Positions 28,948 to 54,000 of a stretch of 64,000 nucleotides of DNA are shown here, piece by piece; position 1 is the stretch's first letter, and each line of letters begins with the position of its first letter. Both the position numbers and the translations under genes were made by a program. Source of the stretch: Methanotrichaceae archaeon (lineage in GTDB: Archaea; Halobacteriota; Methanosarcinia; Methanotrichales; Methanotrichaceae); NCBI GenBank assembly GCA_963748825.1, contig CAVVKN010000018.1:1-64000 (forward strand). The letters run 5' to 3'. The notes under the pieces were generated by a model, which did no database searches, was not told the DNA's origin, and saw only the letters and a program-made list of their open reading frames with translations.

Positions 28948-29149
28948 AGTGATTGCGGCCTATATCTTTCATCTGAAATGCAGCAAATCAAATATAAAGA
29001 TTGTCTGCAAAAACATCGGAGAAATAAAAATTAAAATTAAAGGCAAGGACGGTGGAAGGACAGCGGGCTTCGCCCTTTTTTGCTGCCTGGCCTGGATTTC
29101 AGGCTGAAAAGTCTTCGGCTGCGTTTAAACTCTAACTTTTCGTCAAGAC

Positions 29150-34378: not shown

Positions 34379-35388
34379 GAGATTACCTCAGCAACCTTGT
34401 CGGCAGAAGTTTAAACCTTGTTGATGTTGTAAGACCAAGGTTAATTTCAATGTTTGAACCGCCTGCTATCCAGGCGGATGGTACTTTTTTTTATGCATCT
34501 CGATCCTCCGGCGAAAGAAATGGTGAGCCAGAATCTGCAATCTCAAGCGTTAATCTTCGCCAGAATTATGGAGATCGCAAAAAGGGTATAAATACATCTG
34601 AGCTGATTACTGCCAAGAATGACTCAAAGATGTCTTTAGAAAATAAATTATCTGAGCCTCAACCAAGAGCTTTCGAAGATCAGCCGTTTGTTGAGGTGGC
34701 TTTGAATCCAATAGGATCTGCATACGAATTAAAGAGCATGGAAAGCAAGAATAATAATTTCTCTGATATAGTAAGATCAAATGAAAAAGCAATAAGAAAT
34801 GTAAAAAGTCAAGAACGCTCCAAAACAAAAAATTCTTTGATCAAGGACGAAAATATTCCAGAGCACCTAGGAATATTTAAAGGAGATGATTATTCTTATC
34901 GCATATCAAATGAAGATAGATCGCAGGAATTACAGGGGCTAGATATCCCTCGGATTGAGATTGAAGGAAGCAAATTAGAAAGACAAGATAAAGACTCAGA
35001 GGCAGAACATCGGCAATTCAAGGTGCCAAATGCTTCTCGAGACGCTAATAGTAACGAGAGAGAATACTTGGATGGCAAGAATGAGCGAATTGATCCGGTA
35101 TTAAAGATTCCCGATATCGAGACTGATTCTATCGTCAGCATTCGAATGCCTTTCCACATGAAAATGCAAACACAGAAGGCTATAAAAGAAAATATTCCTC
35201 AATCCATTTCTTCATACCAGGGATCAGGATTGCGGGAAATCTCTGATCCGGTGGTTCAAGTTACCATAGGTCGAATCGATGTGAAGGCAAATCAGCAACT
35301 GCCTAAATCCACTGCTAAACGTTCACCCTCTATTGCTCCAAGCTTGGACGAATATCTCAAGAGACGCGCTGATGGAGGTATTAGATGA
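34375..35388 (+). CDS. eCIS-associated hypothetical protein, largely disordered
   Basis: Overlaps both neighbours; charged low-structure middle; C-terminal VQVTIGRIDV...SLDEYL. Confidence 0.7.
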   Translation: MRDYLSNLVGRSLNLVDVVRPRLISMFEPPAIQADGTFFYASRSSGERNGEPESAISSVNLRQNYGDRKKGINTSELITAKNDSKMSLENKLSEPQPRAFEDQPFVEVALNPIGSAYELKSMESKNNNFSDIVRSNEKAIRNVKSQERSKTKNSLIKDENIPEHLGIFKGDDYSYRISNEDRSQELQGLDIPRIEIEGSKLERQDKDSEAEHRQFKVPNASRDANSNEREYLDGKNERIDPVLKIPDIETDSIVSIRMPFHMKMQTQKAIKENIPQSISSYQGSGLREISDPVVQVTIGRIDVKANQQLPKSTAKRSPSIAPSLDEYLKRRADGGIR

Positions 35389-36608
35389 GCAATCCATTAG
35401 CAATTGCTGCTGTAACGGCCACTCTCCAAAACCTCTTTACAAAAGAGATTCATAAAGATAATGCACTTTCAGATGCCATAATCACAGTACAGTCTCCGGA
35501 TAGAGCCAGAGGCAGCAATACTGCGAATCAGTTGAATATATTCCTTTACCAAGTTGCATATGATGCGGCATTCCGCAATGCTGTTATGCCTGGTCGATTG
35601 AGGCCAGGGGAGACAGGCTATCCGCCATTATCTCTCAGCCTTTTTTATCTGATCACTGCTTACGGCCAGGACAACGATGACACTAATAGCCATCATTTGT
35701 TAAGCAAGGCGATGAGCATACTGCATGATCATCCTCTACTGGGTGCGGATGAAATCAGGGACTCTCTTCCCGGAAACGATCTCTATAAGCAGCTAGAACG
35801 CGTGCGTATTACACCTCAACCTATCACCCTTGATGAGATGTCCAAGCTCTGGATGACCTTTCAGACTCAGTATAGGATCTCAGCTGCTTATCACATCTCG
35901 GTTGTGCTCATTGATAGCACTAGGGCTGTGACAACTCCTTTGCCCGTAATTAACCGCGGAGATGAGGATCAAGGAGCTGATGTTCTCTCCGCTCCCTCCG
36001 CTATCATTGAATCTATTGAGCTACCTGGAATAAAACGAAGCGCAGAGCTAGGAGATGTCATTACTTTAAAAGGCCAGCGATTTGATGACCAGATGAAATT
36101 GTACATACTAAATCAGCACATGCACGGCCCTGAGGATGAACCGATGCGAGAGGTGATATTAGAGCAGGAGCCTGGGAGCACGGCCAAAGAGATTAAGGTC
36201 AAGATACCCGATGATTCAACTAATTGGTCCGCAGGACTCTATACAATCCATGCCGCATTAAGCCTCAAGGGTGATAGAAAACTGACCACGAATGAGCTGC
36301 CCTTATCCCTGGCTCCAACCATTCTCAATATCCAACCCCCTTCAGCAAAGAAAGGCGATGTAACTCTGACCCTGACTGTCAAGCCCGATGTTCGGCCTAA
36401 ACAAGAGGTTTACCTTCTCTTCGGAAGTGATCAGATAGCTTTAAAAAGCAATCCTGCATCCGATGAACTCGTCTTTTCCTTTAATACTGCTAAAACAGGC
36501 GATCACATAGTTCGATTGAGGATTGATGGCGTTGACAGCATTCCAATCGATCCCAAGGCCACGCCTCCGAAGTTCGATGACAAGCAAAAGGTGAATATCC
36601 ATGATTGA
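35385..36608 (+). CDS. DUF4255 / Pvc16-like cap (tail terminator) with C-terminal Ig-like domains
   Basis: MSNPLAIAAVT, LNIFLYQV, L.L.YLITAY, LHDHP, SAAY..SVVLI. Confidence 0.85.
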   Translation: MSNPLAIAAVTATLQNLFTKEIHKDNALSDAIITVQSPDRARGSNTANQLNIFLYQVAYDAAFRNAVMPGRLRPGETGYPPLSLSLFYLITAYGQDNDDTNSHHLLSKAMSILHDHPLLGADEIRDSLPGNDLYKQLERVRITPQPITLDEMSKLWMTFQTQYRISAAYHISVVLIDSTRAVTTPLPVINRGDEDQGADVLSAPSAIIESIELPGIKRSAELGDVITLKGQRFDDQMKLYILNQHMHGPEDEPMREVILEQEPGSTAKEIKVKIPDDSTNWSAGLYTIHAALSLKGDRKLTTNELPLSLAPTILNIQPPSAKKGDVTLTLTVKPDVRPKQEVYLLFGSDQIALKSNPASDELVFSFNTAKTGDHIVRLRIDGVDSIPIDPKATPPKFDDKQKVNIHD

Positions 36609-38796
36609 GGACGATAGCTGGTACCATAAGAATGACAGGTATCTCGCTATTTCCTTGGCATGGATTCGAAGGCGATTGGAAAGGCTTGCAGAGAGGAATG
36701 AAATTGACGATGCTGAGGGCCAAGAAGATCAGGAGCTTTCAGAGGTTTCTAGAAATGTAGATACGCCAGTTCAATCAGAGAAGGGTTCCTTTTGGAGTCG
36801 ATTGAATCTGAGATTTAATGATCCGACTGAATCAGACAATGACCTGGATAAAGATGCATCAGATGCATCTCATGCAGAAATAAGCGATACTTATGACAGG
36901 GCAATTGATGATCCGGCTCAGTATGATGATCAGGCTCGGGCAGAAAATGGATTGGATGCATTTGAAGCGGATGAGCGTCCGCCTAACCTGATAGTGCTTA
37001 GCCGTGCTTTAGGCCTCAATAGGTTTGAAAGGAATCTGCTTCTTCTCTGTGCGGCTATGGAGCTGGATACGAGGATTCCGGGTCTATGCGCCCGCGCCCA
37101 GGACGATCATAACCGTCCTTACCCTACCTTTGCCCTGGCCATGGCGCTTTTTGATGAGCAACCCCATGATTTGCTCTCCCCCTTGAGGCCACTAAGATAT
37201 TGGCGGCTGATTGAGATCAACCAGCCTCCCGCTTATCCTCTAAGCATCAGTCCCTTGCGAGCCGACGAGCGGATTGTCAACTATATCAAGGGGCTGAACT
37301 ATCTGGATGATAGGCTCGCATCCCTCTTGACCCTTATAAAAGTATCCAAAGAATCTTCGATTCTTCCAGATTCTCAGAGCAAGGCTGTGGAGTCAATAGT
37401 TCATAATCTCGGCTCGTCCGATTCCCATCCACCAGTTGTTCAATTGCTGGGAATAGATTGCTCGACCAAACAGATGATTGCGGGTTATGCTTCTCGTAAG
37501 CTAGGAAAGAAGCTCTATTATTTGCCAATACAGTTGATACCCCAGCAGGTGGGGGAGATGGAGACATTTTCCCGGCTCTGGCAGAGGGAATGTAACCTTC
37601 TTCCCATAGCCCTCTACCTGGATGTTCATGAGTTCGACCATGCTCAGATGAATGCACAAGCATCCTTTCTCAGTCGCTTTTTGGACACAAGCAGCGGCAT
37701 GTACTTCATGGATACTAGAGACAGATGGACGGAACTGATAAGAGAATCCATTGTGCTGGAGACCGCCAAGCCTATAACTTCCGAACAGCAGGCAGCCTGG
37801 TCAAATGCCCTTGGGCTAAAATCAGATGGAATTCCTGCCAGGCTCGCTTGCCAGTTCGACTTGAATCTCAGCACAATAAATCAGATAGCTCAAAGAGAAC
37901 TGCAGGAATCGGACGGCAGCACTCTTCCTCTCGAAGACAGGCTTTGGCGATCATGCAGAGAGAGTACACGGCCTACTCTTGATGGGCTGGCGCAGCCTCT
38001 CAAGCCCGTAGCAACCTGTAAGGATATTGTGCTGCCCAAGAAGGAGAAGGATTTGCTGGATCTGATAGCACGGCAGGTAAAATATCGCTGCAAGGTTTAT
38101 GATAAAGGGGGATTTAGGAAGAAGATGAATCGGGGCTTGGGAATAAGCGTGCTTTTCGCCGGGGATAGCGGAACTGGAAAGACCATGGCCGCTGAGGCAT
38201 TGGCCAATGAATTGGACCTTGACATTTTTAGAATAGACCTTTCTGCAGTGGTCAGCAAATATATCGGAGAGACAGAGAAAAACCTGCGCCGCCTCTTTGA
38301 TGCCTTTGAGGGAAGTGGCGCCATTCTATTCTTCGATGAGGCGGATGCCCTTTTTGGCAAACGCAGTGAGGTAAAAGATAGCCATGATAGATATGCCAAC
38401 ATTGAGATCAACTATCTGCTGCAACGCATAGAGGCCTATCGCGGTCTAGCCATATTAGCGACCAATATGAAGAATGCTCTAGACCCAGCATTCATGCGAA
38501 GGTTGCGATTCATAGTGAATTTTCCATTTCCTGGAAAAGATGATCGCCTCAAGATCTGGAAAACGGTATTTCCTGATGAGACGCTCAAAGAGAATTTGGA
38601 TTTTGAGAGACTGGCTAATTTCGCCATTACTGGAGGCAGCATTCACAACATAGCTCTAAATGCGGCGTTTTTGGCGGCTCCTGCCGGAGTGCCAGTGTCA
38701 ATGTCCATGATCATGGATTCAGCAAAGATCGAATTTCAGAAGATGGGGATACGCATCAACGAGGCTGAGTTCACCCTTCCAGGGAGCAAGAAATGA
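36601..38796 (+). CDS. AAA+ ATPase (Afp15/Pvc15-like)
   Basis: Walker A GDSGTGKT, VVSKYIGETEKNL, Walker B FFDEADALFGKR, DRYAN.E. Confidence 0.93.
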   Translation: MIEDDSWYHKNDRYLAISLAWIRRRLERLAERNEIDDAEGQEDQELSEVSRNVDTPVQSEKGSFWSRLNLRFNDPTESDNDLDKDASDASHAEISDTYDRAIDDPAQYDDQARAENGLDAFEADERPPNLIVLSRALGLNRFERNLLLLCAAMELDTRIPGLCARAQDDHNRPYPTFALAMALFDEQPHDLLSPLRPLRYWRLIEINQPPAYPLSISPLRADERIVNYIKGLNYLDDRLASLLTLIKVSKESSILPDSQSKAVESIVHNLGSSDSHPPVVQLLGIDCSTKQMIAGYASRKLGKKLYYLPIQLIPQQVGEMETFSRLWQRECNLLPIALYLDVHEFDHAQMNAQASFLSRFLDTSSGMYFMDTRDRWTELIRESIVLETAKPITSEQQAAWSNALGLKSDGIPARLACQFDLNLSTINQIAQRELQESDGSTLPLEDRLWRSCRESTRPTLDGLAQPLKPVATCKDIVLPKKEKDLLDLIARQVKYRCKVYDKGGFRKKMNRGLGISVLFAGDSGTGKTMAAEALANELDLDIFRIDLSAVVSKYIGETEKNLRRLFDAFEGSGAILFFDEADALFGKRSEVKDSHDRYANIEINYLLQRIEAYRGLAILATNMKNALDPAFMRRLRFIVNFPFPGKDDRLKIWKTVFPDETLKENLDFERLANFAITGGSIHNIALNAAFLAAPAGVPVSMSMIMDSAKIEFQKMGIRINEAEFTLPGSKK

Positions 38797-39050
38797 GGAT
38801 AAACTTGCATATCGAGAGGCTTATTCTTGACGGCTTGCCACTTGAGCCCGGCCAGGGGCGTGTCGTGAAAGCAGCGGTTGAGGCGGAGCTGACCCGGATG
38901 ATTGCAGGCCAGGGCATATCATCAGAACTGATGACGGGAGGAGCAGTCCCTTCGGTATCAGCGAATGGCATTCAAATTGCTCCGGGGGCCAAACCGGCCG
39001 TCATCGGCAGAGAAATTGCCAGGTCGGTTTATGGAGGATTGGGCAGATGA
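38793..39050 (+). CDS. Small eCIS-associated hypothetical protein
   Basis: INLHIERLILDG; ATGA overlaps at both ends. Confidence 0.75.
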   Translation: MRINLHIERLILDGLPLEPGQGRVVKAAVEAELTRMIAGQGISSELMTGGAVPSVSANGIQIAPGAKPAVIGREIARSVYGGLGR

Positions 39051-40516
39051 GCTATGAATTATTTGATCAGGCTCGAAAATATTTGCCAACTTCATTCATC
39101 AGCGGCTTGCTTCCAAGAGAATGCGATAAATGCCACGAAAAGAAACCGGCCTTGCAGCGCTCAGCCATCAATTCAGCTCCGGGATCTGTTCCGCCAATAG
39201 TGCATGAAGTATTGCGCACGCCAGGCCAGCCGCTGGATTCAGATGTTCGTGCTTTCATGGAGCCGCGCTTTGGTCATGATTTCGGTCAGGTTCGCATACA
39301 CACCGATGACCGAGCCGCAAAATCGGCACAGGCGGCAAATGCACTAGCTTACACAGTGAGACATGACGTCGTTTTCGACACAGCGCATTACGCGCCGGGT
39401 ACTCTTCCTGGGCAGAGACTGCTGGCCCATGAGCTGACCCATTTGGTGCAGCAGTCGAAAGGGAATGTGACAGGGACGATGGGCAAGAGTTCACCGGAGA
39501 TCAGCTCTCCCAGCGATCCATTGGAACGAGAGGCAACAAGGATCTCAGGCAGCATTGTTTCATCCGGCGCAGGAACTACAGGCCTTGAGGCCATAGCGCC
39601 CAGAGAAGATATCTCTGCTGCATCCGGGACGCAACTGTTGCGCCAGGTTGCTCCAAGCAGCGCGGAAGATGTTGATCTGGAGCTGGCCATGCCTGCAAGT
39701 GCATCGATGGCAGGTTCATTAACGATTGATAGATTTGAGTTGGACAAGGCCATCCTCACAAAGGAGCATCTGGGAGCATTATCCCAGCATACGAAGAAGC
39801 TGCAGAAGATCCTCAAGAGATACCCTGATTCGTTTGCTTCGGTCGTGGGCCATACCGATGCTTCCGGAACTGAAGAGCATAATGAGAAGCTTGGGCAAGA
39901 ACGAGCTGATGCAGTCCGGTCGGAATTGATCGCCCAGGGAATTTCGGGGGAGATTTTGCGTGCGGCGAGCCTTGGGGAGCGCTCGCTAATCGTACCCACT
40001 AAGGCGCCGGAGCCACGCAACCGTCGAGTGGAAATCCTATTTCAGTCACGAAACTTCATGGCTGGAAGATTCGGGACCGCTCAGAGTCCACCAATGTCGC
40101 TCAGGATGAGAGAAGGAGAAACAACGACCCCAAAACTACCCCCATCACCGCCTAGATCAATTTTCGATATCCTTAAAATTCCAGATATCAAGAATGAACC
40201 TAAGAATTGGTTAGAAGAAGCTTTGAAGCAAGATCGGCTATTGCGAACGCTGCCACGATGGGCCCGCGATAAAGCGATTGATGCGTTAAAAGATGCGGAT
40301 GAGATGGCGGCTGATAAAATAATCGATGCTATGCCCTGGGGCGGCAAGGAAAAGGAGGCTGCGAAGGCGGCAATAAAATCAATTCTGCAACTGTTGAAGG
40401 GTAAACGCTTCAAAGAGCCAACACCACCACTTCATGAGATGCCGCCTTCAGCGTCTCCCAAGTTCCAAGAGATGCCGGGGCAAGTCATCATTCCACTCTG
40501 GGAGAAAAAGTGGTAG
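39047..40516 (+). CDS. DUF4157 effector 1 with OmpA/MotB C-like domain
   Basis: GQPLD...FMEPRFGHDF..VRIH...LLAHELTH; VGHTDASG...N.KLGQERADAV...NRRVEI. Confidence 0.88.
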   Translation: MSYELFDQARKYLPTSFISGLLPRECDKCHEKKPALQRSAINSAPGSVPPIVHEVLRTPGQPLDSDVRAFMEPRFGHDFGQVRIHTDDRAAKSAQAANALAYTVRHDVVFDTAHYAPGTLPGQRLLAHELTHLVQQSKGNVTGTMGKSSPEISSPSDPLEREATRISGSIVSSGAGTTGLEAIAPREDISAASGTQLLRQVAPSSAEDVDLELAMPASASMAGSLTIDRFELDKAILTKEHLGALSQHTKKLQKILKRYPDSFASVVGHTDASGTEEHNEKLGQERADAVRSELIAQGISGEILRAASLGERSLIVPTKAPEPRNRRVEILFQSRNFMAGRFGTAQSPPMSLRMREGETTTPKLPPSPPRSIFDILKIPDIKNEPKNWLEEALKQDRLLRTLPRWARDKAIDALKDADEMAADKIIDAMPWGGKEKEAAKAAIKSILQLLKGKRFKEPTPPLHEMPPSASPKFQEMPGQVIIPLWEKKW

Positions 40517-40577: not shown

Positions 40578-42089
40578 ATGGGCAATCAATTAATGAATTC
40601 TACAAAGACAGCGAATACTTCATCTCTGAAGTCTGCGAGAGCCGGCCTGCTGCAGCGCCAGTGCGCCTGCGGACAGCATGCTATAGGCGGTGAGTGTAAA
40701 GAGTGCCATAAGAAGAAGGGCATTCTGCAGAGATCTGCTATCGACCCAGCTCCTAATTTAGTGCCGCCCTTAGTTCATGAGGTGCTCAGGTCACCGGGAC
40801 AGCCGCTGGATGCGACCACTCGCGCATTCATGGAGCCGCGATTCGGGCATGACTTCAGCAAGGTGCGAGTTCATGCAGATGCGAAGGCAGCAGAGTCGTC
40901 GCAGGCTGTGAATGCATTAGCCTATACGGTAGCATCGAATGTGGTGTTTGGAGCTATGCAATATGCACCAAAGACAAAGGAAGGGCAGCGATTGATGGCG
41001 CACGAACTGACACATGTGGTGCAACAGGGCTCCGCACCTTCTTCGGCCTTTGCGCATGTTTCCTTGGCATATGACACCCATGAAAAGGATGCGGATGCCA
41101 TAGCTGGACAAGTACTTCTGGGCCATCCCCTTGCAGCGACTACTGCAAAGTTAAATGATCATGCCCTCCAACGTCAGGCCGTTCCCGGCGGCGGAGCAAC
41201 GCCAGGAACCGGTGTGGGGCTTGATTTAATCTTCATAATCAAAGCGCATAATGATCCATATACCTCTGATGTAACGAATTATGTCAAGACCGTGCTACAA
41301 GGTCAACATTACGAGGAAGTTGATAATCTAGACCAAATTTTTAGTAGGTTGGATAATTTGAGCCGCCCCCAAGGGATTGCTCCAATAGTTGAGGGGCTGA
41401 AACCTCCAAAGGGGACAAAGCCCTACAGTCCAAAGCAAATAGTACGTCGTATCCGGATTGTAGCTCACGGCAGCACTACTGGCGGTGTCAAGATGAAGCC
41501 CGCTGGAGAGAAAAAGCGGCGCTGGTTTACTCCTTCTGAAATAAAAAGCTATGCCAGCAAGCCTAATAATCAAGTGACCATTAAGAGAGTGATGACACCT
41601 GGGGCAGTAGTCGAATTCTGGGGGTGCAATATCGGAAACGTGCCTGAAGCAGGGAGGGCATGGTCGAGCCTGTTCGGTTCGAAGTTCAAAGCAACCACGG
41701 AAACCTTTAAAACCGAGCATGGTAGGTATTATCGTCCCGCTGCTAGGGGTGAAAGGGGTCAAACCATCCCCAATCAAAAAGGCACATGGATTAGGGTCAC
41801 GAGGACGAGCGATGTGGACAAACGTAACAGGGGGCTCCAAGATCACTTCCGGCAATGGCTGTTACAAACTTATGGTGAGCTTGTTCAAAACGGTGATATT
41901 CTTCCCATAAAAGATCAGGCCGAGCAGCTACAGTATATGCGTGACTTGTTCGACCGTTCAGATGGCGATATAATTCACATCATCGTTATGAAGAAATCGG
42001 ACAGAAGCCTTGTTCGGCCTGGTGATCAATCTAGCTGGGCAAAACTATGGGTTGAGTTCCCTCCACTCAACATCGGGGCCAATCCTTGA
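40578..42089 (+). CDS. DUF4157 effector 2 with DUF4347/caspase-like C-terminal domain
   Basis: LLQRQCACG leader, AHELTH; IRIVAHGS...VEFWGCNIG. Confidence 0.82.
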   Translation: MGNQLMNSTKTANTSSLKSARAGLLQRQCACGQHAIGGECKECHKKKGILQRSAIDPAPNLVPPLVHEVLRSPGQPLDATTRAFMEPRFGHDFSKVRVHADAKAAESSQAVNALAYTVASNVVFGAMQYAPKTKEGQRLMAHELTHVVQQGSAPSSAFAHVSLAYDTHEKDADAIAGQVLLGHPLAATTAKLNDHALQRQAVPGGGATPGTGVGLDLIFIIKAHNDPYTSDVTNYVKTVLQGQHYEEVDNLDQIFSRLDNLSRPQGIAPIVEGLKPPKGTKPYSPKQIVRRIRIVAHGSTTGGVKMKPAGEKKRRWFTPSEIKSYASKPNNQVTIKRVMTPGAVVEFWGCNIGNVPEAGRAWSSLFGSKFKATTETFKTEHGRYYRPAARGERGQTIPNQKGTWIRVTRTSDVDKRNRGLQDHFRQWLLQTYGELVQNGDILPIKDQAEQLQYMRDLFDRSDGDIIHIIVMKKSDRSLVRPGDQSSWAKLWVEFPPLNIGANP

Positions 42090-42190: not shown

Positions 42191-44152
42191 GTGACAGAAA
42201 AGATGCAATGTATTAAAAAAGCATCGCAGAATCCATCCCTCAAGCCAGCGAATGCCAGACTCCTGCAACGCCAGTGCGCCTGTGGCCAGCATGCTATAGG
42301 CGGTTATTGTGAGGAGTGCAGTAAAGAGAAGGGGGTTTTTCAGAGGGCTTCTTTTGAAATTATGACTAATTCAGTGCCGCCCATAGTTCATGAGTTGCTA
42401 AGGTCGCCGGGGCAGCTGCTTGATATTGGGAACAGCCCGTTCATGAAGCCGCGCTTAGGTCATGACTTCAGCCAGATGCCAGTTCATCCAACCAAGGGAG
42501 TGACTATTCAGCCGAAGCTGGTTGTCAGTCAACCCGGAGATCATTATGAGAAGGAAGCAGATCGAGTTGCGGATATCGTAACTCGAATGCCGGCATCACA
42601 GACCACCGCGGGAGAAGTAATGAGTCAACTAACTCAGCCATTATACATCCAGCGCTTAGGTCCAGAGGATGAAGAAAAACTACATCAATCGCCAGAGGAG
42701 GAAGAAGAGGAAGAAGGAGATGAAGCCCTTCAGGCTAAAGAAGTCCCAGGCCGAACTTCTATGGTTTCGATCGGTTTTGAGAACTACCTTCAGTCCATCA
42801 GAGGAGGCGGCGAGCCGTTGCCGAGACCTGTCCGTTCCTTCTTCGAGCCACGCTTCGGCCACGATTTTAGCCAAGTTCGCATTCATGCGAATAGCGAGGC
42901 AACCAAGTCGGCACAGAGAATGAATGCGCGAGCGTACACCGTCAGTCACGATATAGTCTTTGGGCTTGGTGAGTACTCGCCGGGCACAGACAAGGGGAGA
43001 CTACTGCTTGCCCACGAGCTGGCGCACGTTATCCAGCAGTCGTCTGCCTCTCCTGGAGCGTCCGGACTCATTATGCGTGGCAAGGGAAAAGCTATCCAGA
43101 AAATCGCCGGATGGATCGTTAGAGTAGGTGAGCGTAAACTAATCAAAAAAGCTGCGATATATACTGAGAAGGAGATGGCGAAGCTGCTTGGGAATGGCTA
43201 TAACGTTCTCGTGAGAAGGGGGCGGTCAGTGGCGAAGAGAGTGGCGAAAAAAGTGTGGGGGGATGATGTAATCCATCACACTGGCCACATTATCAAGAAG
43301 ACTACGACGAAGGGCATGTCACATTTTCAACCTGGCAAACATTTGATCGGTAAATCAGGAGAAAAAGGATGGCACATCTTTTACGCTGCCGCTCCTATCC
43401 TATTCTTTTCGGAGGATGTGGAAGCTTTAGAGATCTACGACGACAAGTATCCCGGCAAGTCCATCGCGAATTATCTAACCGTTACAAAATATGTTGGAGA
43501 GGATTCGTGGTTATCTTACCTTGATTGGGTGAATCCTCTAGAATTGATTGCCATTGGAGGCGATATCGGTCGTGACAAGGATCGGGAGCGTACGAAAGAA
43601 CTCAAAGCAATCGTATTCAACCGAATCGCTGCCGACGGAACCATTCAAACGTATGAACTGGACCTCGAAGGACAATTGGTGCGTGTCATCATTGTCAAAC
43701 CGGGCGGACAGCAAAAAACCCTGAGCGCTGAGGAATATTATACCTTCCTGGCCAAGAATGCTGTCAAGTCATCACCAGAACCGGTTATACAAGATGGCAC
43801 CAAGCATCCGAATTATGCATCTACCTTCGATGCCGAATACCGCATCTATAACTCTAAGCAAGGTTGGGGTTGGGATTTCAAAACATTATCGTTCTTCCTT
43901 CCTGCAGAGGACTCAAAGAAACTTCAAAAGATTGGGCAGTTTTACGTTTGGGAGAATTTTTCAATCAAGTATGTCTATGCTTATGTCCATCCACGCTACC
44001 GAGTGGAGTTGCACCAGCCCGGATTTGAGGTGCCCGAAGAGCTGGTAGGTGAATACGCATCCAGTCGCAAGGACGCATTCTTACAGAATATGCTCAAATC
44101 GACGTTGCAGGCAAAAAAAGTCTTGAGTGCCGACCTCTGGAAGGCTAAGTAG
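42191..44152 (+). CDS. DUF4157 effector 3 with unknown His-rich C-terminal domain
   Basis: LLQRQCACG leader, IQPKL...EKEADRVA, poly-E, AHELAH; HHTGH...SHFQP...HIFY. Confidence 0.82.
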   Translation: MTEKMQCIKKASQNPSLKPANARLLQRQCACGQHAIGGYCEECSKEKGVFQRASFEIMTNSVPPIVHELLRSPGQLLDIGNSPFMKPRLGHDFSQMPVHPTKGVTIQPKLVVSQPGDHYEKEADRVADIVTRMPASQTTAGEVMSQLTQPLYIQRLGPEDEEKLHQSPEEEEEEEGDEALQAKEVPGRTSMVSIGFENYLQSIRGGGEPLPRPVRSFFEPRFGHDFSQVRIHANSEATKSAQRMNARAYTVSHDIVFGLGEYSPGTDKGRLLLAHELAHVIQQSSASPGASGLIMRGKGKAIQKIAGWIVRVGERKLIKKAAIYTEKEMAKLLGNGYNVLVRRGRSVAKRVAKKVWGDDVIHHTGHIIKKTTTKGMSHFQPGKHLIGKSGEKGWHIFYAAAPILFFSEDVEALEIYDDKYPGKSIANYLTVTKYVGEDSWLSYLDWVNPLELIAIGGDIGRDKDRERTKELKAIVFNRIAADGTIQTYELDLEGQLVRVIIVKPGGQQKTLSAEEYYTFLAKNAVKSSPEPVIQDGTKHPNYASTFDAEYRIYNSKQGWGWDFKTLSFFLPAEDSKKLQKIGQFYVWENFSIKYVYAYVHPRYRVELHQPGFEVPEELVGEYASSRKDAFLQNMLKSTLQAKKVLSADLWKAK

Positions 44153-45674: not shown

Positions 45675-46788
45675 AGGGATTCATCTCACCCTACTCATAG
45701 GGCCGACCATACCTGTTATTGCGCCGCATGCCGTGATGGATGCGCTAACCAGTATCCAGGTAACAACTTCCGCCGGCCAGAGAAGCGGTTTTCAGCTCTC
45801 CTTTGCTCTCAGCAAGGAATCTTTGCTTAATAGAGTGCTGATTCCAGCAGGCTACTTCGACCCTAAGATTAGAGTGATTATTGTCGTTACCATGAATGGA
45901 ATGCCCAATGTTTTGATGGATGGAATAATAACTCAGCAGGCCGTGAACCCCAGCAATGAGCCGGGTCAGTCTACACTTACCGTCACGGGAGAAGACTTGA
46001 GCTTGTTATTGGACCTGGAAGAGATCAGTATGTGCTATCCTTGCATGCCTCATCAGGCTATAGTGGCTATGATCTGTCTCAAATATGCATTTTATGGCAT
46101 AGTTCCCTTGCCTATCCCTCCTCTGCTAATGGACATTCCCAATCCCCTAGAAAAAATACCCGTCCAGTCTGGAACTGATCTCGCTTATATAAGCCAACTG
46201 GCCAAAGATGTAGGTCATATTTTTTATATTGAACCTGGACCTCTGCCCGGTGCCAATATCGCCTATTGGGGACCTGAGATTCGGATTGGCCTTCCTCAAC
46301 CAGCCTTGAGCATCAATATGGATGCAGACACAAATGTCGAATCGTTGAGCTTCACCTTTGATGGCTTGGCTAAAAAGCAGATGACAATCAACATCACCGA
46401 ACCTATCACTAAGATCACGATCCCCATACCAGTCCCTGATGTGGGATTATTGCGGCCTCCTTTGGCCTCAAGACCTGCTACATCATTACGCACAGGCCCA
46501 GTGCCTTGCACAGCGAAGCAGAACCCGATTCGTGCTGCTTTATTTGGATTATCCATGACTGCCGAGGCTTCGGATTCGATTAGTGGTTCTGGACAGTTGG
46601 ATGTCCTTCGATATGGACATGTATTGAAGGCTCGGGGATTGGTATCTGTACGTGGTGCTGGTTTGGCTTATGATGGTTTCTATTTCGTGAAAAGTGTGAC
46701 CCACAACATCAAACGGGGTGAGTACAAGCAGAGCTTCACTCTAGCCAGGGATGGACTTATTTCGCTCACACCTAAGGTGATGCCATGA
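45667..46788 (+). CDS. Baseplate hub (gp27/GpD, VgrG N-terminal-like)
   Basis: LMDGIIT, LTVTGEDL, TDLAYI..LA...G, G.G.AYDG.YFV.SVTH; position in operon. Confidence 0.75.
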   Translation: MLKGIHLTLLIGPTIPVIAPHAVMDALTSIQVTTSAGQRSGFQLSFALSKESLLNRVLIPAGYFDPKIRVIIVVTMNGMPNVLMDGIITQQAVNPSNEPGQSTLTVTGEDLSLLLDLEEISMCYPCMPHQAIVAMICLKYAFYGIVPLPIPPLLMDIPNPLEKIPVQSGTDLAYISQLAKDVGHIFYIEPGPLPGANIAYWGPEIRIGLPQPALSINMDADTNVESLSFTFDGLAKKQMTINITEPITKITIPIPVPDVGLLRPPLASRPATSLRTGPVPCTAKQNPIRAALFGLSMTAEASDSISGSGQLDVLRYGHVLKARGLVSVRGAGLAYDGFYFVKSVTHNIKRGEYKQSFTLARDGLISLTPKVMP

Positions 46789-47327
46789 ATGAAGAAAATT
46801 GCAAGAAATTTAACGGCTTATATAAAGGTACTGTAGTATCAAATATTGATCCATTGACTCAAGGAAGGCTGTTGGTCAGAGTACCAGATGCTCTAGGGAG
46901 CCTTCCATGCGTCTGGGCTGAGTCTGCGAGCCCTCTGGCAGGCCCTCAAATGGGAGTATATATGGTTCCTCCTATTAATGCAGGTGTTTGGGTATTATTC
47001 CAAAATGGAGACCCCAACTTCGCAGTCTGGACGGGTTGCTGGCGTGGATCTCCAACTGATGTACCCCTAAAAGCGTTATCAGCGCCACCTGGTGTTCCTC
47101 CTATATTGATTCAATCAACGACCCAAAATAAAATAATAATCAGTAATGTTCCTCTTCCTACGGAAGGCATCATACTGGAGACAACCTTGGGCGAATTAGG
47201 GCCGCGTATTGAGATTACCAATACAAGCATCACAATTTCAGCTGGCATTGGCAGGCCGTCCATCAAGGTGGACCAAGCCATGGTGAACATAAACAATGGT
47301 GCTCTAACTGTTGTAGGGCCGGGATAA
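46785..47327 (+). CDS. Spike protein (gp5 OB-fold / GpV)
   Basis: YKGTVVSNIDP...GRL.V.VP, PP..AGVWV.F..GDP..VW.G. Confidence 0.88.
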   Translation: MNEENCKKFNGLYKGTVVSNIDPLTQGRLLVRVPDALGSLPCVWAESASPLAGPQMGVYMVPPINAGVWVLFQNGDPNFAVWTGCWRGSPTDVPLKALSAPPGVPPILIQSTTQNKIIISNVPLPTEGIILETTLGELGPRIEITNTSITISAGIGRPSIKVDQAMVNINNGALTVVGPG

Positions 47328-47342
47328 AGAAGGAGACAATCT

Positions 47343-47684
47343 ATGCCCGGACCTCTCTTTCATGTTGGCGCAGTTGCCACCTGTCCTCATATTGGTGGCC
47401 AGTTTGTGGTTACTACCACTAACACGCGAGTCTTAGTTAGCGGCATGCTAGTTGTGACCCTGACGGACATACTGAAGATTGCCCCAGGCTGTCCCTTCAC
47501 TGTGCCAGGCCCCAAGCCCCAGCCATGCTTTCTGGCAAAGCTGATCCCCTCTACCAGAGTCTTTGTGAATGGTCAGCCGGCAATCATTTACACTCCGGGC
47601 TCAGGCATCTGCCAAAGCGCGGAGCAGATTCCTTCGGGGCCTCCCATTGTCAGCACAATTCAAACCAGAGCTATTGGGATATGA
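47343..47684 (+). CDS. PAAR-like spike tip
   Basis: GA...CPH.G, GCPF...P.PC, RVFVNGQP; follows the spike gene. Confidence 0.75.
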   Translation: MPGPLFHVGAVATCPHIGGQFVVTTTNTRVLVSGMLVVTLTDILKIAPGCPFTVPGPKPQPCFLAKLIPSTRVFVNGQPAIIYTPGSGICQSAEQIPSGPPIVSTIQTRAIGI

Positions 47685-48052
47685 TGACTATGTATATCGA
47701 TTTTCCATATCACTTTGACGGCAGTGGCCGTACGGCCTCCGCAGATTACGACGACCATATTAGGGATATGATAGAACAGTTTCTGTTCACGAATGCAGGG
47801 GAGCGGGTCAACCGTCCTGACTTCGGCAGCGGACTGCTTCAGATAGTTTTCGCTCCAAATATTCCAGAACTTGCGGCAACACTGCAGCTCACCATTCAGG
47901 CAGGGCTTCAGCGCTGGCTTGGTGATTTAATAGACATCCATGCCTTGCAGGTCGCCAGCGAGGAGTCCGTTCTGAGGATACTTGTTCAATATGTAGTGCG
48001 AAAGACTGGGGAGCGTCGTACTGAACTCTTTCAGAGGGGTGGTTTGCTTTGA
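47681..48052 (+). CDS. gp25/GPW baseplate sheath initiator
   Basis: LFTNAGERVNRPDFGSGL; ATGA overlap with the tip gene. Confidence 0.9.
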   Translation: MMTMYIDFPYHFDGSGRTASADYDDHIRDMIEQFLFTNAGERVNRPDFGSGLLQIVFAPNIPELAATLQLTIQAGLQRWLGDLIDIHALQVASEESVLRILVQYVVRKTGERRTELFQRGGLL

Positions 48053-51000
48053 GAAATGCAGATTTGGCATGCAAGAAGGAGGGGCGTCGCAAACAGATCC
48101 GGAAGGAAGCAACCTCTGAAGAAGGCTTGAATGGCATAGATTACGTGGAAGTAGTTATCAAACCAAAATCGTCAAACTCAGATCCAATCAAGGATGTGTA
48201 TCTTGAGGTCCACCTCTTTAAGAATATAAAGAATAGCATTGCAAGAGAGAATATTATAATCGAGGGTGGAAGAAGGATCCGCGATGTTTCAGTGCAGGAG
48301 AGCAATCCTTTGGGACGAAAAAATGATAAAGTTTTTAAAGGATTCCAAATAAAACTCAATAAGCTCGGAGATTTTTCTCAATATACACTTCGTTTGGTCG
48401 AGGTTGATGTAATTAAGCAACCAACCGATACACCTCTCAAAGGATTTGATCCTCGCTACGCTCAAATTGATTTCAGTTTCAGGCAAGGCTGCTCGAGCGA
48501 CCTGGACTGCAAGCAAAAACTCATCTGTCCGACCGATAGAAAAGAAGAACCAGAAATTAATTACCTGGCGAAAGATTATGCTAGCTTCAGACAACTGATC
48601 CTGGATAGGCTGTCATTGGTAATGCCTGACTGGAAGGAACGCCATGTTCCGGATATTGGAATCGCTTTGACCGAGATCCTAGCCTATACTGGAGACTATC
48701 TGAGCTATTATCAGGATGCTGTGGCAACTGAAGCCTATCTGATGACAGCGCGTCAACGCATCTCTGTGCGTCGTCATGCTCGGCTGGTTGACTACATAAT
48801 GCATGACGGCTGCAACGCAAGAGCCTATGTATTTGTCAAAACTGCTGACAACATAGATCTAGATTCTAGAGAAATTTTCTTCATATCCAGGAAAGACGAT
48901 CTGGCCAGAACCTCGAAAGCCGTCATTGCGAGGGAGGAGCTTATAGGTGTTCCTGAAAATAGCTACGAGGTTTTCCAGCCAATAGTTGAGATAAATGAAG
49001 AACCGCTAAATATAGAAAATGTAAATTTCTCTGAAGATATAATTATAAAACTTAGAGAGGCAGAAGATCCCATATCACAATGTATTTTCAAAGAGCTTTC
49101 TTCTGATCTTCAGGAGCAATTGAAGAAATTTATTCCTGGATCGATTATCGATGAGAAAATTATCGCAAAATTGATACAAGATCTCAATCGCTTAATACAT
49201 CTTGAGATACTGAGTCGATCATTGCTGGAGGAGATCTATCCAGGGCAAATAACCGGCAAGATGATTTCGTTATATAAAGCCCATAACGAGATCCCATTTT
49301 ATACTTGGGGCAACACGGAATGCTGTCTTGCCAAAGGAGCCACAAGTGCTTTCTTGAGAGATAAATGGCGTAATTTGCCAATAACTAATGCTGCAGGAGG
49401 TTCTCCTCCTCTTGAAGAGCAGCAGTTTAACCAATTGTTCCAATTATTCAATTTTAGCCCGAAAAATACTCATCCAGAAGAACAGTTAAAGGTTGATCTT
49501 GATAAACTGACTAAACCAGAATTTCGATCTTTGGAATTAAAAGTAGGCGATATACTCATCTTTGAGGAGGTAGCAGACCCGAAGACTGGAAACAGAGCTG
49601 ATAGGGATATTGCTCACCGCCAGGCTGTGCGCTTAACCAAGGTGGAGTTGAATTACGATCCGCTTTTGACAACTCCTGAAATCGTCAAGAAGGATAAAAC
49701 CGAAACCACAATCGATATACCCACTCCTGTCGTGGATATCGAGTGGGATTTGGAGGATGCCCTTCTCTTTCCATTATGCATATCAGCGATCGGTCCTGCT
49801 CCGGTGTGCCAGCTGAATGAAGCAATTAGTGTAGCCAGGGGAAATGTGATCCTTGTTGAACACGGAAGGGAGGTGAAAGAAGAACTTGGCTCTGTGCTTG
49901 TGGAAGAGATTACAGGAAAGTGCGATTGTGATTATCTCCCTGCTGAGACGTCGAGACTGCCCAGGAGGTTCAGGCCGAAATTGAGCAAAGCTCCCCTTAC
50001 CTTCAGCCAGCCTTTGCCAATCAATGGCTCAGCCAAGAGGTTTTTGGAACAGGACCCTCGCCAGGCTGAGCCTCAGATAAAATTGGTTGGAATTCCGAGC
50101 AGATGCAGTCTTGACTCTTTAGAGTGGACTTCACGGAGCGATCTCTTGAGTAGCGAGAGTGAGGATAGGCATTTCGTAGCTGAGATCGATGATGATGGCC
50201 AAGGTATACTGCGATTTGGTGATGGCGATCTTGGGAAGATGCCGGATGCGGGCACATATTTCTCAGCAATTTATCGTATCGGAACAGGGCATTCTGGAAA
50301 CGTAGGAGCTGAGTCCATTTCGTGCATGGTCTTCAAAAGAAATATGAAGAAGGGATTAGTCAGCGAAGTGCGCAATCCTCTGCCATCCCAGGGTGGCATG
50401 GACCCCGAATCCATACAGGAGGTTAAGCTCTTTGCCCCGGGAAGATTCCGCCAAGATCTGCAGAGGGCAATAGCGGCAGATGACTATGCCAGGCTTGCCG
50501 AGCGCAATCCAAGAGTGCAAAGAGCGGCGGCTATATTTCACTGGATGGGAGGCTGGTATGAGGTAAATGTGGCAGTAGATCCCAGAGGAACGGATGAAGC
50601 CAGCCCGGATCTGCTGAGTGAGGTAAAGAATTATTTGGAGCCATTTCATCGCATGGGCTATGACCTGAGAGTGGTTCCGGTTCAATATATCCCCATTGAG
50701 ATCGATATGACGATCGTCGTCAAGTCCGAATATTTGAAGGGCCATGTCAAAGCGGCAATGCAGGATCTTTTCAGCAGCCGCCTTCTGCCGGATGGTAATA
50801 TGGGCTACTTCCATCCGGATAACCTGAGCTTTGGAGTCAGCATCTTTTTGAGCAAGCTTGCTGCTGCGGCCCAGTTTGTGACGGGCGTTGAGAACGTTTG
50901 CATCACCAAGCTGCAAAGACTGGGGAGCGGCCCCGATCATGAGATGGAGAAAGGAGTTCTGGAAATTGGGCCTCTGGAGATTGCTCAGATGAATAACGAT

Positions 51001-51054
51001 CCCAACTTCCCGGAAAAAGGAATCTTAAATCTTGATATAAGAGGTGGACGATGA
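48049..51054 (+). CDS. Baseplate J/gp6-like wedge protein 1 (Afp11-like)
   Basis: YLAKDYASFRQL, LSYYQDAVATEAYL.TAR, LRFGDG..G..P, GG.DPE, QRAI...DY. Confidence 0.9.
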   Translation: MRNADLACKKEGRRKQIRKEATSEEGLNGIDYVEVVIKPKSSNSDPIKDVYLEVHLFKNIKNSIARENIIIEGGRRIRDVSVQESNPLGRKNDKVFKGFQIKLNKLGDFSQYTLRLVEVDVIKQPTDTPLKGFDPRYAQIDFSFRQGCSSDLDCKQKLICPTDRKEEPEINYLAKDYASFRQLILDRLSLVMPDWKERHVPDIGIALTEILAYTGDYLSYYQDAVATEAYLMTARQRISVRRHARLVDYIMHDGCNARAYVFVKTADNIDLDSREIFFISRKDDLARTSKAVIAREELIGVPENSYEVFQPIVEINEEPLNIENVNFSEDIIIKLREAEDPISQCIFKELSSDLQEQLKKFIPGSIIDEKIIAKLIQDLNRLIHLEILSRSLLEEIYPGQITGKMISLYKAHNEIPFYTWGNTECCLAKGATSAFLRDKWRNLPITNAAGGSPPLEEQQFNQLFQLFNFSPKNTHPEEQLKVDLDKLTKPEFRSLELKVGDILIFEEVADPKTGNRADRDIAHRQAVRLTKVELNYDPLLTTPEIVKKDKTETTIDIPTPVVDIEWDLEDALLFPLCISAIGPAPVCQLNEAISVARGNVILVEHGREVKEELGSVLVEEITGKCDCDYLPAETSRLPRRFRPKLSKAPLTFSQPLPINGSAKRFLEQDPRQAEPQIKLVGIPSRCSLDSLEWTSRSDLLSSESEDRHFVAEIDDDGQGILRFGDGDLGKMPDAGTYFSAIYRIGTGHSGNVGAESISCMVFKRNMKKGLVSEVRNPLPSQGGMDPESIQEVKLFAPGRFRQDLQRAIAADDYARLAERNPRVQRAAAIFHWMGGWYEVNVAVDPRGTDEASPDLLSEVKNYLEPFHRMGYDLRVVPVQYIPIEIDMTIVVKSEYLKGHVKAAMQDLFSSRLLPDGNMGYFHPDNLSFGVSIFLSKLAAAAQFVTGVENVCITKLQRLGSGPDHEMEKGVLEIGPLEIAQMNNDPNFPEKGILNLDIRGGR

Positions 51055-54000
51055 CAGAAATCTGCGGATGCTGCAAAGGCATTGAAGTCAAGACGCCGAT
51101 AGAGATATTTAATCGTCCAGGCTTAAACGGACTAGCCTACCGCATAGGCACCTATGCTAGCTTTATGGAGAGCATGAAGGCGAGGTTATCTGATCATGTA
51201 ATAAGCGTTCCCTGGATAACCGATGACAACGGAGAGCCTAAAGCTGTGGACGTATCTCCACTCAAGTACTTGATGATGCGGGAAGATGATCCGAGCATTG
51301 CCTTTATGGATGCTTGGGCCACTGTGGCAGATGTTTTGACCTTCTATCAGGAGCGCATTGCCAACGAGGGATACCTTCGAACGGCAACTGAACGCCTCTC
51401 TATTTTAGAGCTGGCCAGGCTGGTAGGATACAGACTCAGACCAGGGGTTTCTGCTACTGCATATCTGGCCTACACCATCGATGATGATAAGGCTGCCGAA
51501 ATACCGTTGAACGCCAGGTCTCAGAGCCTGCCGGAGCCGGGGGAGATGCCCCAGTCATTCGAGACCTCAGAAGTGCTGCAAGCCATGGGTGAGTGGAATA
51601 GCCTGAAGCCCAGAATGACCCGGCCCCAATATATTGATATCTGCAATGCTGAAACGGTAGATGTCCTCTATTTCAAAGGGATCTCTACCAATCTGAATCC
51701 CAACGATCCTCTGCTTTTCGAGTTCAGCAATAATCAACAGAATCAACAGGTCATCCGCTGGGTAAAGGAGGTTACTCCGGATCCCAAGACCAACACCACC
51801 AAGGTTGATCTTCTGGTATACTTGACGCCAGCTGCTATAATTAATGCTATAGCTCGTACAGTTAATATGTATCTCGATTTAGAATCATACTGCGTTTCAC
51901 CTGACAATGAAATTGCAATAAGAGTAATAGAATTCCTTCAAGAAATTAAAGTCGTAATAGATGAGTGCAATACTAGCGATAAAAGCGATACAATGTGCCA
52001 TGACGAGCTAATTGAAATCATAAAAAATTTTGATGAAAAGATTCCTAGCGATGTTGGACAGAATCCTCTAATAAAATTTTGGATATCTTCGCTTAAGACA
52101 GACCTGGAGGGATATCTTCCCACGGTATCATGGAGTTCTTCAATAGCTATGCTTGCAGGCGAAGGCATTAGGCGTGGAGTAAGAATTTCTGCTGCCCGAA
52201 ACTTGGAAGCATATAATGAGGTGTCCACTATTATAGCGGGTCTGGATGCAGCTCGAGTTCCACTTATGAAGAAAAGGTCGATACAGCCACGAAGCTCGAG
52301 ATATATAAATTTGCATGCCAGAGAACTCTATGCCCCACAGGCAGAAATCGGGACAAGGATGCTGAAGATCATGTATCCGAGGCTGGTGGATACTCTGGAT
52401 CGCGCTCTATCGAATGCCAGAGTCACAGCGCCCTCGAACCTGATAAGCGTCAATGCTTTTCGGGCCAAAGCTAGGCCGTTTGGCAATAATGCTCCGCAAA
52501 AACCGATCTACAATGACAAAGGCGCGATTAGAGGCTATGACGAGTGGCAACTTGCGTTAAAAGGGATAAAAAATATTAGAATTGATCTAATATTTAATAG
52601 GAAACCATTATCCTCGACGGCAGGAGTAACATATGATGATTCACTCGATGTATTTTTTAAAGAGATAGAGATTCAAGGTGAATTAGGTGCATCATTTAAA
52701 TTTGGAAAGAATGATGAGCTGAACTTAGAAATCAAAGCATATGTTGATAATTCTTTGTCAAATTATTTTTCTGAGTTTCATTTTTCTGGACCCATAAATC
52801 TCGATTTAAAAATTGAGGGTTATAACTCCATGAAAACCGATTTCTACTTCAACACTGAGAATTTCACTCTAAAGGTGGGCAACACACATATTATTTCAAA
52901 AAGCGCCGAAAGAATAGTAACATCAGTTAAAACGTATGACAACATTTCGATATTTTATGGAATACCCTTGAAGCCAGGAGAATATATTCAAAATATCCTA
53001 ACCTTAGATGCCCCTTACGAAAAGATCACTCCAGGGAGCTGGGTGCTTATCGACCGCCCTAATTCCAATCCAGGCCATGAAATTAGGAGATTCAAGGCAC
53101 AAGAGGCAAGAACTGTTTCTGAGGCTAATTACGGTATCACCGCTTCGGCTACGCAGCTCAGTCTAAAGCCGATGGAAAGTGGCAAAAACTGGCTCGAGTC
53201 CGATGACCTCACAATCTCCGTACTCCGAGGATCTACCGTATACGCCCAGAGCGAGATGCTCGAGCTTGCCGATGAGCCGATTGACCCCGAGCTTGAACCA
53301 GTATGCGGTGATGTCATCGAACTTGACCGCCTCTACACCGGCCTCGATCCAGGCAGGAGGCTTATCGTATCCGGTGAGCGCCTGGATGTTACCGGCACCA
53401 CAGGAGTCAGAGACGGCGAGCTGGTAATGCTGGCCGGAGTTACTCAGGACGTCATGAAAGTAAATTCTTTTATACCGATAGCTGAAAAAGAAAGATGCAA
53501 ACAGGAAGTTGATAAACAGAACAACTCTGTTCAAATTGGCTTGCCAGGAGATAAGACTCATACCTTCATAAAGCTGGCCAAGAAGCTGGCCTATGTCTAT
53601 AAGCGCGATACAGTAACCATCTATGGCAACGTCGTTAAGGCAACGCATGGGGAGACGAGAAACAACGAAGTTCTTGGCAGTGGTGATGCCAGCAAGTCAA
53701 TCCAGAGGCTTGCACTGCACCAGTCGCCCCTCACCTATGTCGCTGCAAATACTCCATCCGGCGCGAAAAGCACCTTGCAGGTCAGAGTGAATGATGTACT
53801 ATGGCACGAAGTCGATACAATGGCAGGCTTAAGGCCGAATGATCGCAATTATGTAATCTTTACCGATGACGAAGATAGGACCACTGTCGTATTTGGCGAT
53901 GGCAAGCAGGGGCTGCGACCGCCAACCGGAGTTGAGAATATCAGGGGCGTTTACAGAACGGGCATCGGCAAGGGAGGCAATGTAAAGGCCGAGAAGATCA

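Follow-up and report, generated by a model that had tools for sequence, protein, structure and literature searches.

A predicted injection-system cargo protein with an OmpA-like domain in a Methanothrix-type archaeon: a candidate effector directed at the bacterial cell wall

Proteins that combine a DUF4157 (eCIS_core) domain with an OmpA domain have already been tabled in bacterial operons for extracellular contractile injection systems (eCIS) and among predicted eCIS toxins (PMC11297309, PMC8213781); one of these papers counts 68 predicted eCIS toxins with a peptidoglycan-binding domain, and the table of Geller et al. places OmpA in eCIS operons of five phyla. Here we analyse a gene of this kind, effector 1 (positions 39047..40516, + strand), in a 64,000-nucleotide stretch of a Methanotrichaceae archaeon (the window; positions 1 to 64,000 of contig CAVVKN010000018.1, assembly GCA_963748825.1), where it is a DUF4157/eCIS_core cargo gene within a contractile injection system (CIS) locus, in line with the original prediction of an effector. 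Judged from its sequence, effector 1 is, at slightly better than even odds (about 0.55), an antibacterial CIS effector directed at the bacterial cell wall.

The nearest described counterparts are predicted toxins of bacteria, for example Lcho_3055 of Leptothrix cholodnii, a protein of Chloroflexi T81 and one of Candidatus Accumulibacter, which have the same two domains in the same order in eCIS operons (supplements of Geller 2021 and Danov 2024). Their hosts have peptidoglycan of their own, and none of these proteins has been characterised. Effector 1 adds a rare C-terminal module. Among its best 120 sequence matches, DUF4157 is followed by OmpA in 97, of which 58 (the window's own protein included) continue into this module and 39 are DUF4157-OmpA proteins; two more are OmpA-module proteins.

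Each of the two domains also has described relatives of its own. The C-terminal metallopeptidase of VgrG2b, from the H2 type VI secretion system (T6SS) of Pseudomonas aeruginosa (PDB 6h56), is structurally the nearest characterised protein and shares the DUF4157-type zincin fold and the HExxH motif with effector 1. It is a toxin of the bacterial periplasm that affects the homeostasis of the cell wall, causes midcell blebbing and has MltC, PBP5 and PBP6a as candidate interactors (PMC6899460). It differs from effector 1 in its fusion to a VgrG spike, its delivery by the T6SS, its cognate immunity lipoprotein and its lack of an OmpA-like domain. OmpA, Pal, MotB and TagL/TssL share the fold (Z 12-16) and the GHTD...RA / NRRVE motif with effector 1, but they reach their own periplasm via a signal peptide, lipobox or membrane helix, none of which effector 1 has.

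The layout of effector 1 resembles that of Cgo1/Cgo2, the AlgoCIS cargo of Algoriphagus machipongonensis, in which a disordered N-terminal domain is followed by a DUF4157 in some cases and then by a C-terminal domain that varies (bioRxiv 10.64898/2026.05.27.728243), although the C-terminal domains are different ones and the producer is a bacterium. AlgoCIS cargo enters the lumen of the tube with AAA+ help, whereas for effector 1 we infer such loading. Among archaea, the T6SS-like CIS of Halogeometricum borinquense has secreted DUF4157 proteins, some of them toxic (PMC11566945). That system is membrane-bound, acts on another archaeon and has toxins with downstream immunity partners, whereas no gene lies between the cargo genes here; the available text of the paper mentions no peptidoglycan-binding domain on its CIS proteins. 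Archaea also have modular peptidoglycan hydrolases of bacterial ancestry, which join a wall-binding domain to a catalytic part and kill bacteria (Strock et al. 2025, PMC12352652). Those proteins carry recognised hydrolase domains, and a third of them Sec/Tat signals; effector 1, in contrast, has only the DUF4157 zincin-like domain, and its export would depend on the CIS.

The DUF4157+OmpA architecture, archaeal CIS with DUF4157 cargo and archaeal antibacterial peptidoglycan hydrolases are therefore known already. Added here are a case from a methanogen in which the OmpA-like domain is intact, the OmpA domain and the C-terminal module as a cassette that forms a unit, and the repeated occurrence, within a single genus of archaea, of putatively wall-directed cargo at a site of the chromosome that is conserved. 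A literature search that covered the Geller 2021 and Danov 2024 supplements in part found no paper on archaeal DUF4157+OmpA cargo.

Layout of effector 1 and its OmpA-like domain

Effector 1 is composed of a leader, a DUF4157 domain, a linker, an OmpA-like domain, a Pro-rich linker and a C-terminal helical module. An AlphaFold2 model was built from 36 homologues and has a mean predicted local distance difference test score (pLDDT) of 77, with values >90 across residues (aa) 50-140 of the DUF4157 part and across aa 220-335, and low values at aa 1-45 and 340-386. The parts of the gene are as follows.

39047..40516, +, cargo gene effector 1, 489 aa (list of open reading frames, ORFs; Pfam eCIS_core and OmpA)
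39047..39181, +, N-terminal leader, aa 1-45, predicted to be disordered (pLDDT <50 at aa 1-4, 12-25 and 35-42)
39230..39463, +, DUF4157/eCIS_core zincin-like domain, aa 62-139 (PF13699, E 2.1e-30)
39701..40048, +, OmpA-like domain, fold at aa ~219-334 (Pfam, PDB sequence matches, AlphaFold2 fold matches, motif)
39857-39859, +, codon of D271 (read from the sequence)
39902-39904, +, codon of R286 (read from the sequence)
40019-40036, +, NRRVEI motif (read from the sequence)
40202..40513, +, C-terminal module, aa 386-489, a five-helix unit with a Pro-rich tail (conserved in the alignment of homologues)

The OmpA-like stretch that the original prediction placed at 39719-40050 is real: it lies in frame in the ORF 39047..40516 as aa 225-334, and Pfam, fold and motif agree on it. 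Pfam OmpA (PF00691) matches aa 230-326 (nt 39734-40024) at E 5.1e-13, with 49.6 bits against a curated cut-off of 27.2, and a whole-genome scan (53.4 bits) returned it as the sole OmpA match in the 2.88 Mb genome. When PDB sequences were searched with phmmer, 41 distinct OmpA-like chains matched at E <= 0.01, the best being YiaD (1.6e-11), OprF (6.7e-11) and Acinetobacter baumannii Pal (4.1e-10); A. baumannii OmpA and several Pal proteins also match. The modelled fold was matched by VIA-align to 3td3 (Z 16.2, root-mean-square deviation [rmsd] 2.2, 115 aa), 9uu2 (Z 16.2) and 4g4v (Z 15.8, rmsd 1.9), and by Foldseek to 4g4w (TM 0.85, rmsd 2.3). The domain is confirmed as genuine, far beyond chance.

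The GHTD...RA and NRRVEI motif is likewise present as first described, its residues read directly from the sequence as G268, H269, T270 and D271; N279; R286; and N325, R326, R327 and V328. Asp271 and Arg286 are diaminopimelate (DAP)-binding residues of A. baumannii OmpA (PMC12108004). The proposed check of the DAP-contacting Asp and Arg positions was made, and both are kept in effector 1 as D271 (of GHTD) and R286 (of ERA), 15 residues apart, an equivalence drawn by motif alignment rather than by residue-level superposition. D271, N279, R286 and R326-V328 are invariant in all 36 aligned full-length homologues.

The DUF4157 part of the AlphaFold2 model aligns with the VgrG2b effector domain (6h56_B) at Z 8.3 with rmsd 3.6 over 124 aa, and within its HExxH motif at aa 128-132 (nt 39428-39442) H128, E129 and H132 are invariant in 36/36 aligned homologues. 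As for a peptidoglycan-cleaving domain, Pfam gives effector 1 besides OmpA only eCIS_core, a zincin-like fold of unspecified substrate, and no toxin domain is recognised in it by Pfam and PHROG scans. The leader, with pLDDT 43-51 predicted across aa 1-40, contains a degenerate Cys motif and an 'ALQRSA' stretch common to both neighbouring cargo genes. By analogy with AlgoCIS cargo, in which the N-terminal domain is the loading signal (bioRxiv 10.64898/2026.05.27.728243), it presumably directs loading.

Neither a signal peptide nor a membrane helix was found in effector 1 (maximum Kyte-Doolittle hydrophobicity 1.0 in 19-aa windows, and 0.24 among the first 30 start positions of such windows), so the protein is expected to be cytoplasmic in the producer, and its OmpA-like domain cannot, for the same reason, anchor anything in the producer's envelope. 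The gene has a GC content of 52% and a third-position GC (GC3) of 0.51, like the surrounding island and within the genome range (0.61 +/- 0.10).

Behind the Pro-rich linker, the C-terminal module consists of a conserved helical part (aa 386-450) and a tail ending in 'PGxxIIP...W/F'. A full HMMER pass over 1.84 billion representatives found only 62 proteins with the module at E <= 1e-3; by Pfam 35 of them carry OmpA and 26 eCIS_core, and most others are fragments. In 32 of the 34 proteins of at least 340 aa the OmpA domain stands directly upstream of the module (24 DUF4157-OmpA-module, 7 OmpA-module, one with a further DUF4157), and because the module almost always directly follows OmpA, the two form a conserved cassette. 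The module has no Pfam family at E <= 10 and no usable ESM Atlas match. Modelled alone it reaches a pLDDT of 62.8, with unrelated helical proteins as its best fold matches (Z <= 5.9); this poor model and these matches are no evidence of a new fold. Four short proteins (P0154, P0160, P0169 and P0155) lack both DUF4157 and OmpA and pass directly from a leader with a conserved 'Y(E/G)xxDDP' stretch to the module, a sign that the module may serve as cargo by itself.

The producer and its injection-system locus

The prediction that the host is a Methanothrix-type archaeon without murein holds. McrA is present, with a Methanotrichaceae archaeon (87%) and Methanocrinis (82%) as nearest named relatives and ANME-2 and Methanosarcinaceae next at ~70% identity. 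The PBP transpeptidase family (PF00905) and Mur_ligase_M (PF08245) have 0 matches in the genome, which is an estimated 94.9% complete. Pseudomurein is known from other orders only. Methanosaeta/Methanothrix grows within a proteinaceous sheath (PMC6242892).

The CIS is native to this host and not contamination. Its contig measures 151 kb, and the GC content is 48.6% there and 50.8% in the genome. An FAD-oxidase gene that borders the CIS on its upstream side (27574-28947) is 75-93% identical to same-genus orthologues and also adjoins the CIS in four genomes of the genus (G012, on an 880-kb contig, G001, G004 and G017). Of 59 genus genomes, 27 have a sheath homologue (52-64% identity), the single-contig genomes G020 and G052 among them; for genomes of high quality the count is 12 of 30. 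The genes of the locus are listed below.

31424-33091, +, sheath (Phage_sheath_1C / Phage_sheath_1)
33104-33637, +, tube (Phage_T4_gp19)
within the CIS locus, T4_baseplate-like gene (Pfam)
35385..36608, +, Pvc16_N tail terminator/cap (PF14065, E 3e-47)
36601..38796, +, Pvc15/Afp15-like AAA+ ATPase for cargo loading (Pfam AAA and WHD), directly upstream of the cargo genes
40578..42089, +, effector 2, DUF4157 cargo gene, 503 aa (Pfam; pairwise comparison)
42191..44152, +, effector 3, DUF4157 cargo gene, 653 aa (Pfam; pairwise comparison)
46785-47327, +, spike (Phage_base_V)
47525-48052, +, gp25
48049-54764, +, two Baseplate_J proteins
within 46785..58338, +, 725-aa ORF
56935-58338, +, DUF6519/DUF4815 protein

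Sheath, tube, Pvc16 cap, Pvc15 ATPase, spike, gp25 and Baseplate_J stand in one cluster, so that the eCIS gene set is present. Effector 1 is the first gene after the loading ATPase, and the cargo genes lie between the ATPase and the spike and baseplate genes, separated from one another by gaps of 61 and 101 bp with no ORF between. Outside these three tandem genes the genome has no DUF4157 match. The three proteins are alike in their N-terminal 110-150 aa, where effector 1 shares 57% identity with effector 2 (aa 25-171) and 61% with effector 3 (aa 56-137); beyond this part they are unrelated. They show the pattern of a constant delivery part joined to a variable payload. Effectors 2 and 3 gave no PDB sequence match of note and no PHROG, their C-terminal halves belong to no known family, and ESM Atlas offers leads only for effector 2 (0.92 to an unnamed bacterial cluster, 0.83 to a Stv adhesin cluster).

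Effector 3 carries a partial duplicate that lacks HExxH and comprises the leader and the first half of DUF4157 (aa 26-99; 42266-42490), placed before the complete domain at aa 203-284 (42794-43051). The leaders of effectors 2 and 3 (40578-40700 and 42191-42340) share with many bacterial homologues a four-Cys motif, 'LQR(K/Q)CACG...C..C', which is degenerate in effector 1; within the loading signal it might form a small knuckle that binds metal. The absence of an immunity gene was considered as an argument and dropped, since a bacterial DUF4157+OmpA locus (L011) is also without one and the absence does not discriminate. No clear membrane segment was found in the 17 CIS ORFs, which does not by itself mean that the particle is released.

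Candidate function and the alternatives

A wall-binding domain in the cargo of a machine whose producer has no such wall suggests, and does not prove, that the cargo is aimed at bacteria. The two outcomes first proposed, a bacterial target or a domain retained from a bacterial donor and repurposed, are not exclusive: the bacterial type of the cassette is borne out, and a bacterial target is plausible because Peptidase_M23, YkuD and PG_binding_1 occur on the cargo of sister loci. Among 22 DUF4157 proteins scanned in the CIS loci of eight genus genomes, four carry peptidoglycan-directed domains, a count biased by prior knowledge that G012 and G009 carry OmpA: OmpA (G012, G009), Peptidase_M23 (G012; E 4.9e-20, plus a weak M15_4 match) and YkuD (G016; 29.8 bits against a cut-off of 23.4). 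Five have other second domains (Peptidase_C92+C2, TGL, Ntox1, DUF6402 and a weak M35 match) and 13 have none. PG_binding_1 is found in 13 of 59 genus genomes, fused to eCIS_core in two of 11 ORFs scanned (G062, G042), and a published supplementary table has a Methanosaeta DUF4157 toxin candidate that adjoins a DUF4157+PG_binding_1 gene. Several unrelated domain families for which murein is the known substrate recur in this way on CIS cargo where no murein genes were found.

In the mechanism that we propose, the particle, its cargo loaded with the help of the AAA+ ATPase, would fire at a bacterium nearby and bring the protein into or across its envelope, and the OmpA-like domain would then dock non-covalently on DAP-type peptidoglycan. 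Docking would hold the HExxH domain, the C-terminal module or both at the wall, where, like the VgrG2b metallopeptidase in the periplasm, they may impair the upkeep of the wall. The cassette would have come from bacteria and been taken into a variable cargo slot, the CIS being of long standing in the genus. More tentatively, and a little short of even odds, the Methanotrichaceae may possess a chromosomally fixed CIS with an exchangeable cargo slot stocked with OmpA-like, PG_binding_1, M23 and YkuD domains, serving as a cross-domain weapon or in partner control.

Several points weigh against a wall-directed antibacterial role. The HExxH motif is dispensable for toxicity in Cgo1 and SalCgo1, DUF4157 is dispensable for loading in AlgoCIS (bioRxiv 10.64898/2026.05.27.728243), and eCIS operons show no statistical enrichment for OmpA (odds ratio 1.36, q 0.75; table of Geller et al.). 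Release in the periplasm, at the peptidoglycan, is not a given for eCIS cargo, the cytoplasm being the alternative. The module is without a Pfam family or a meaningful fold match, and the sister-locus count of four in 22 carries the bias noted above. Other points concern origin. All named full-length relatives come from bacterial metagenome-assembled genomes (Ktedonobacteraceae, Longimicrobium, Anaerolineales, Herpetosiphonaceae, Pseudonocardiaceae and Angelobacter). A GC content of ~70-75% is seen in 13 of the 14 metagenome contigs that bear the module, all of them 1.0-3.7 kb long and too short for gene context. The OmpA domain could simply have come along with a bacterial cassette. Finally, among the archaeal DUF4157+OmpA proteins, the Arg is kept in 11/11 copies and the Asp in 6/11, the other five having a 'GYAS' variant with Ser at the DAP-contacting Asp position.

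These last points also favour the explanation that survives best beside the preferred one, and which we consider unlikely on the whole: that the OmpA and module cassette was inherited from bacteria and has no peptidoglycan role in this archaeon, effector 1 acting on non-bacterial targets (archaea, protists) via its other parts, or the OmpA-like fold binding a different ligand. The full-length relatives are bacterial or of high GC, the closest of them only 44-47% identical, and the module was found in none of the other archaeal loci examined. The only tested archaeal CIS antagonises another archaeon (PMC11566945). The domain phylogeny proposed at the outset was run as a quick tree search (118 columns, 154 rows, many long branches, weak support). 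It placed the window copy amid the bacterial and metagenomic family, nearest to P0007 (63% identity) and apart from the other archaeal copies, which do not cluster either (6 label changes; 68 of 500 shuffles were as low); with so few columns for the rows and such long branches, it cannot decide between one and several archaeal acquisitions. Set against this explanation are the family-invariant OmpA residues, all intact despite a nearest relative at 46-47% identity, and the recurrence of M23, YkuD and PG_binding_1 in the genus, which is hard to credit to chance carry-over each time. The cassette looks bacterial in origin and not recently arrived, since the GC and GC3 of the gene match the island and the genome rather than the ~70% GC of most relatives.

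In the archaea, OmpA-family matches occur in 4 of 59 genus genomes and in 14 of 301 class genomes (13 of them above the cut-off), spread over six of 48 genera. Seven of 12 archaeal OmpA ORFs scanned are eCIS_core+OmpA, and one more has eCIS_core with OmpA behind an in-frame TAG; our own hidden Markov models add three further DUF4157+OmpA proteins, which brings the total to 11 proteins in 10 genomes and five genera of the class. A scan of genome contigs, keyed on the DUF4157 motif, returned mostly DUF4157 proteins without OmpA. Pseudogenisation, a sequencing error or read-through could each account for the TAG-interrupted gene (G062:C285:1770-1973; L083, L103), in which the OmpA part of a DUF4157 gene follows a single in-frame TAG and the ORF before it gives eCIS_core alone.

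A further alternative, which we find improbable, gives effector 1 an accessory task: it would load, stabilise or release the neighbouring cargo as a chaperone, or tether the fired particle or tube to a wall. DUF4157 has been proposed as a cis or trans chaperone for eCIS toxins (PMC11297309), and a gene that stands first after the loading ATPase and has no recognised toxin domain would suit such a task; each of the three tandem genes, however, has its own DUF4157 and leader, so none needs one in trans, and the proteins made of leader and module suggest that the module is a deliverable unit.

That the OmpA-like domain anchors the machine in the producer's envelope, like TagL/TssL of the T6SS or MotB, is close to refuted. 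In its favour, the wall anchors of the T6SS, TagL 5m38 (Z 13.6) and 4b62 (Z 12.2), have a matching fold, and the haloarchaeal CIS is membrane-bound and T6SS-like (PMC11566945). Against it, effector 1 lacks both a signal peptide and a membrane helix, no murein genes were found in the producer, the leader and DUF4157 form a cargo layout and no CIS ORF has a clear membrane segment. It is scarcely credible that a bacterial contig was misplaced in an archaeal bin, since the absence of an archaea-only marker among the 14 flanking ORFs scanned and the mobility of CIS loci are met by the contig GC, the FAD-oxidase orthologues adjoining the CIS in the genus and the sheath homologues in single-contig genomes described above.

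Other features of the window and implications

Two further groups of proteins in the genus carry wall-binding domains. At ~589-597 kb of G012:C1 (L086, L088, L120), on the same 880-kb contig as the CIS of that genome, two open frames of 1605 and 1913 aa have a phage baseplate-hub-like N-terminus (DNA_circ_N or DUF6046) together with OmpA-like and PG_binding_1 domains, and may belong to a second tail-like device with wall-binding parts. In five genus genomes (L121-L124 and L126; G006, G048, G003, G044 and G064), proteins of ~600 aa with a Peptidase_M6-like stretch and then two PG_binding_1 domains represent another possible wall-directed family.

Within the window, the sheath contains an (AAAP)n repeat insert, 'AAAPAAAPAAAPAAAP', at ~32060-32120 (aa ~216-233). 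Between the FAD-oxidase gene and the CIS operon, GC falls to 0.26 at 29000-29999 against ~0.45-0.53 around it, a stretch that might have a regulatory function or mark the seam of an old insertion. A tRNA-Gly(CCC) gene (25669-25740, +) lies 5.7 kb upstream of the operon, an IS66-like transposase gene (248-1558, -) at the left end of the window and a gene for a SIR2_2-domain protein (62885-63958, -) near its right end. DNA runs of two studies matched the locus in short pieces without differences at low depth, parts of the OmpA region included, and one of these runs may be the source sample; no RNA run is listed with a match to the stretch, and one RNA run, from the same study as a matching DNA run, gave none either.

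The targeting of bacteria by archaeal CIS has been stated to be untested (PMC12352652), and the CIS of methanogens have been named as unexplored (PMC11566945). This locus and its sister loci are concrete, clonable candidates that bear on whether archaeal CIS act against bacteria, and the only recognisable targets of the cargo, DAP-type peptidoglycan and its cross-links, are absent from the producer. If the proposed reading is true, the rare C-terminal module would be a new effector domain, and together with OmpA it would make up a previously undescribed wall-docked effector unit. The system would then be a cross-domain CIS that injects from archaea into bacteria, aimed at those sharing anaerobic aggregates with acetoclastic methanogens, and would bear on the place of methane producers among the syntrophic bacteria of digesters, sediments and soils.

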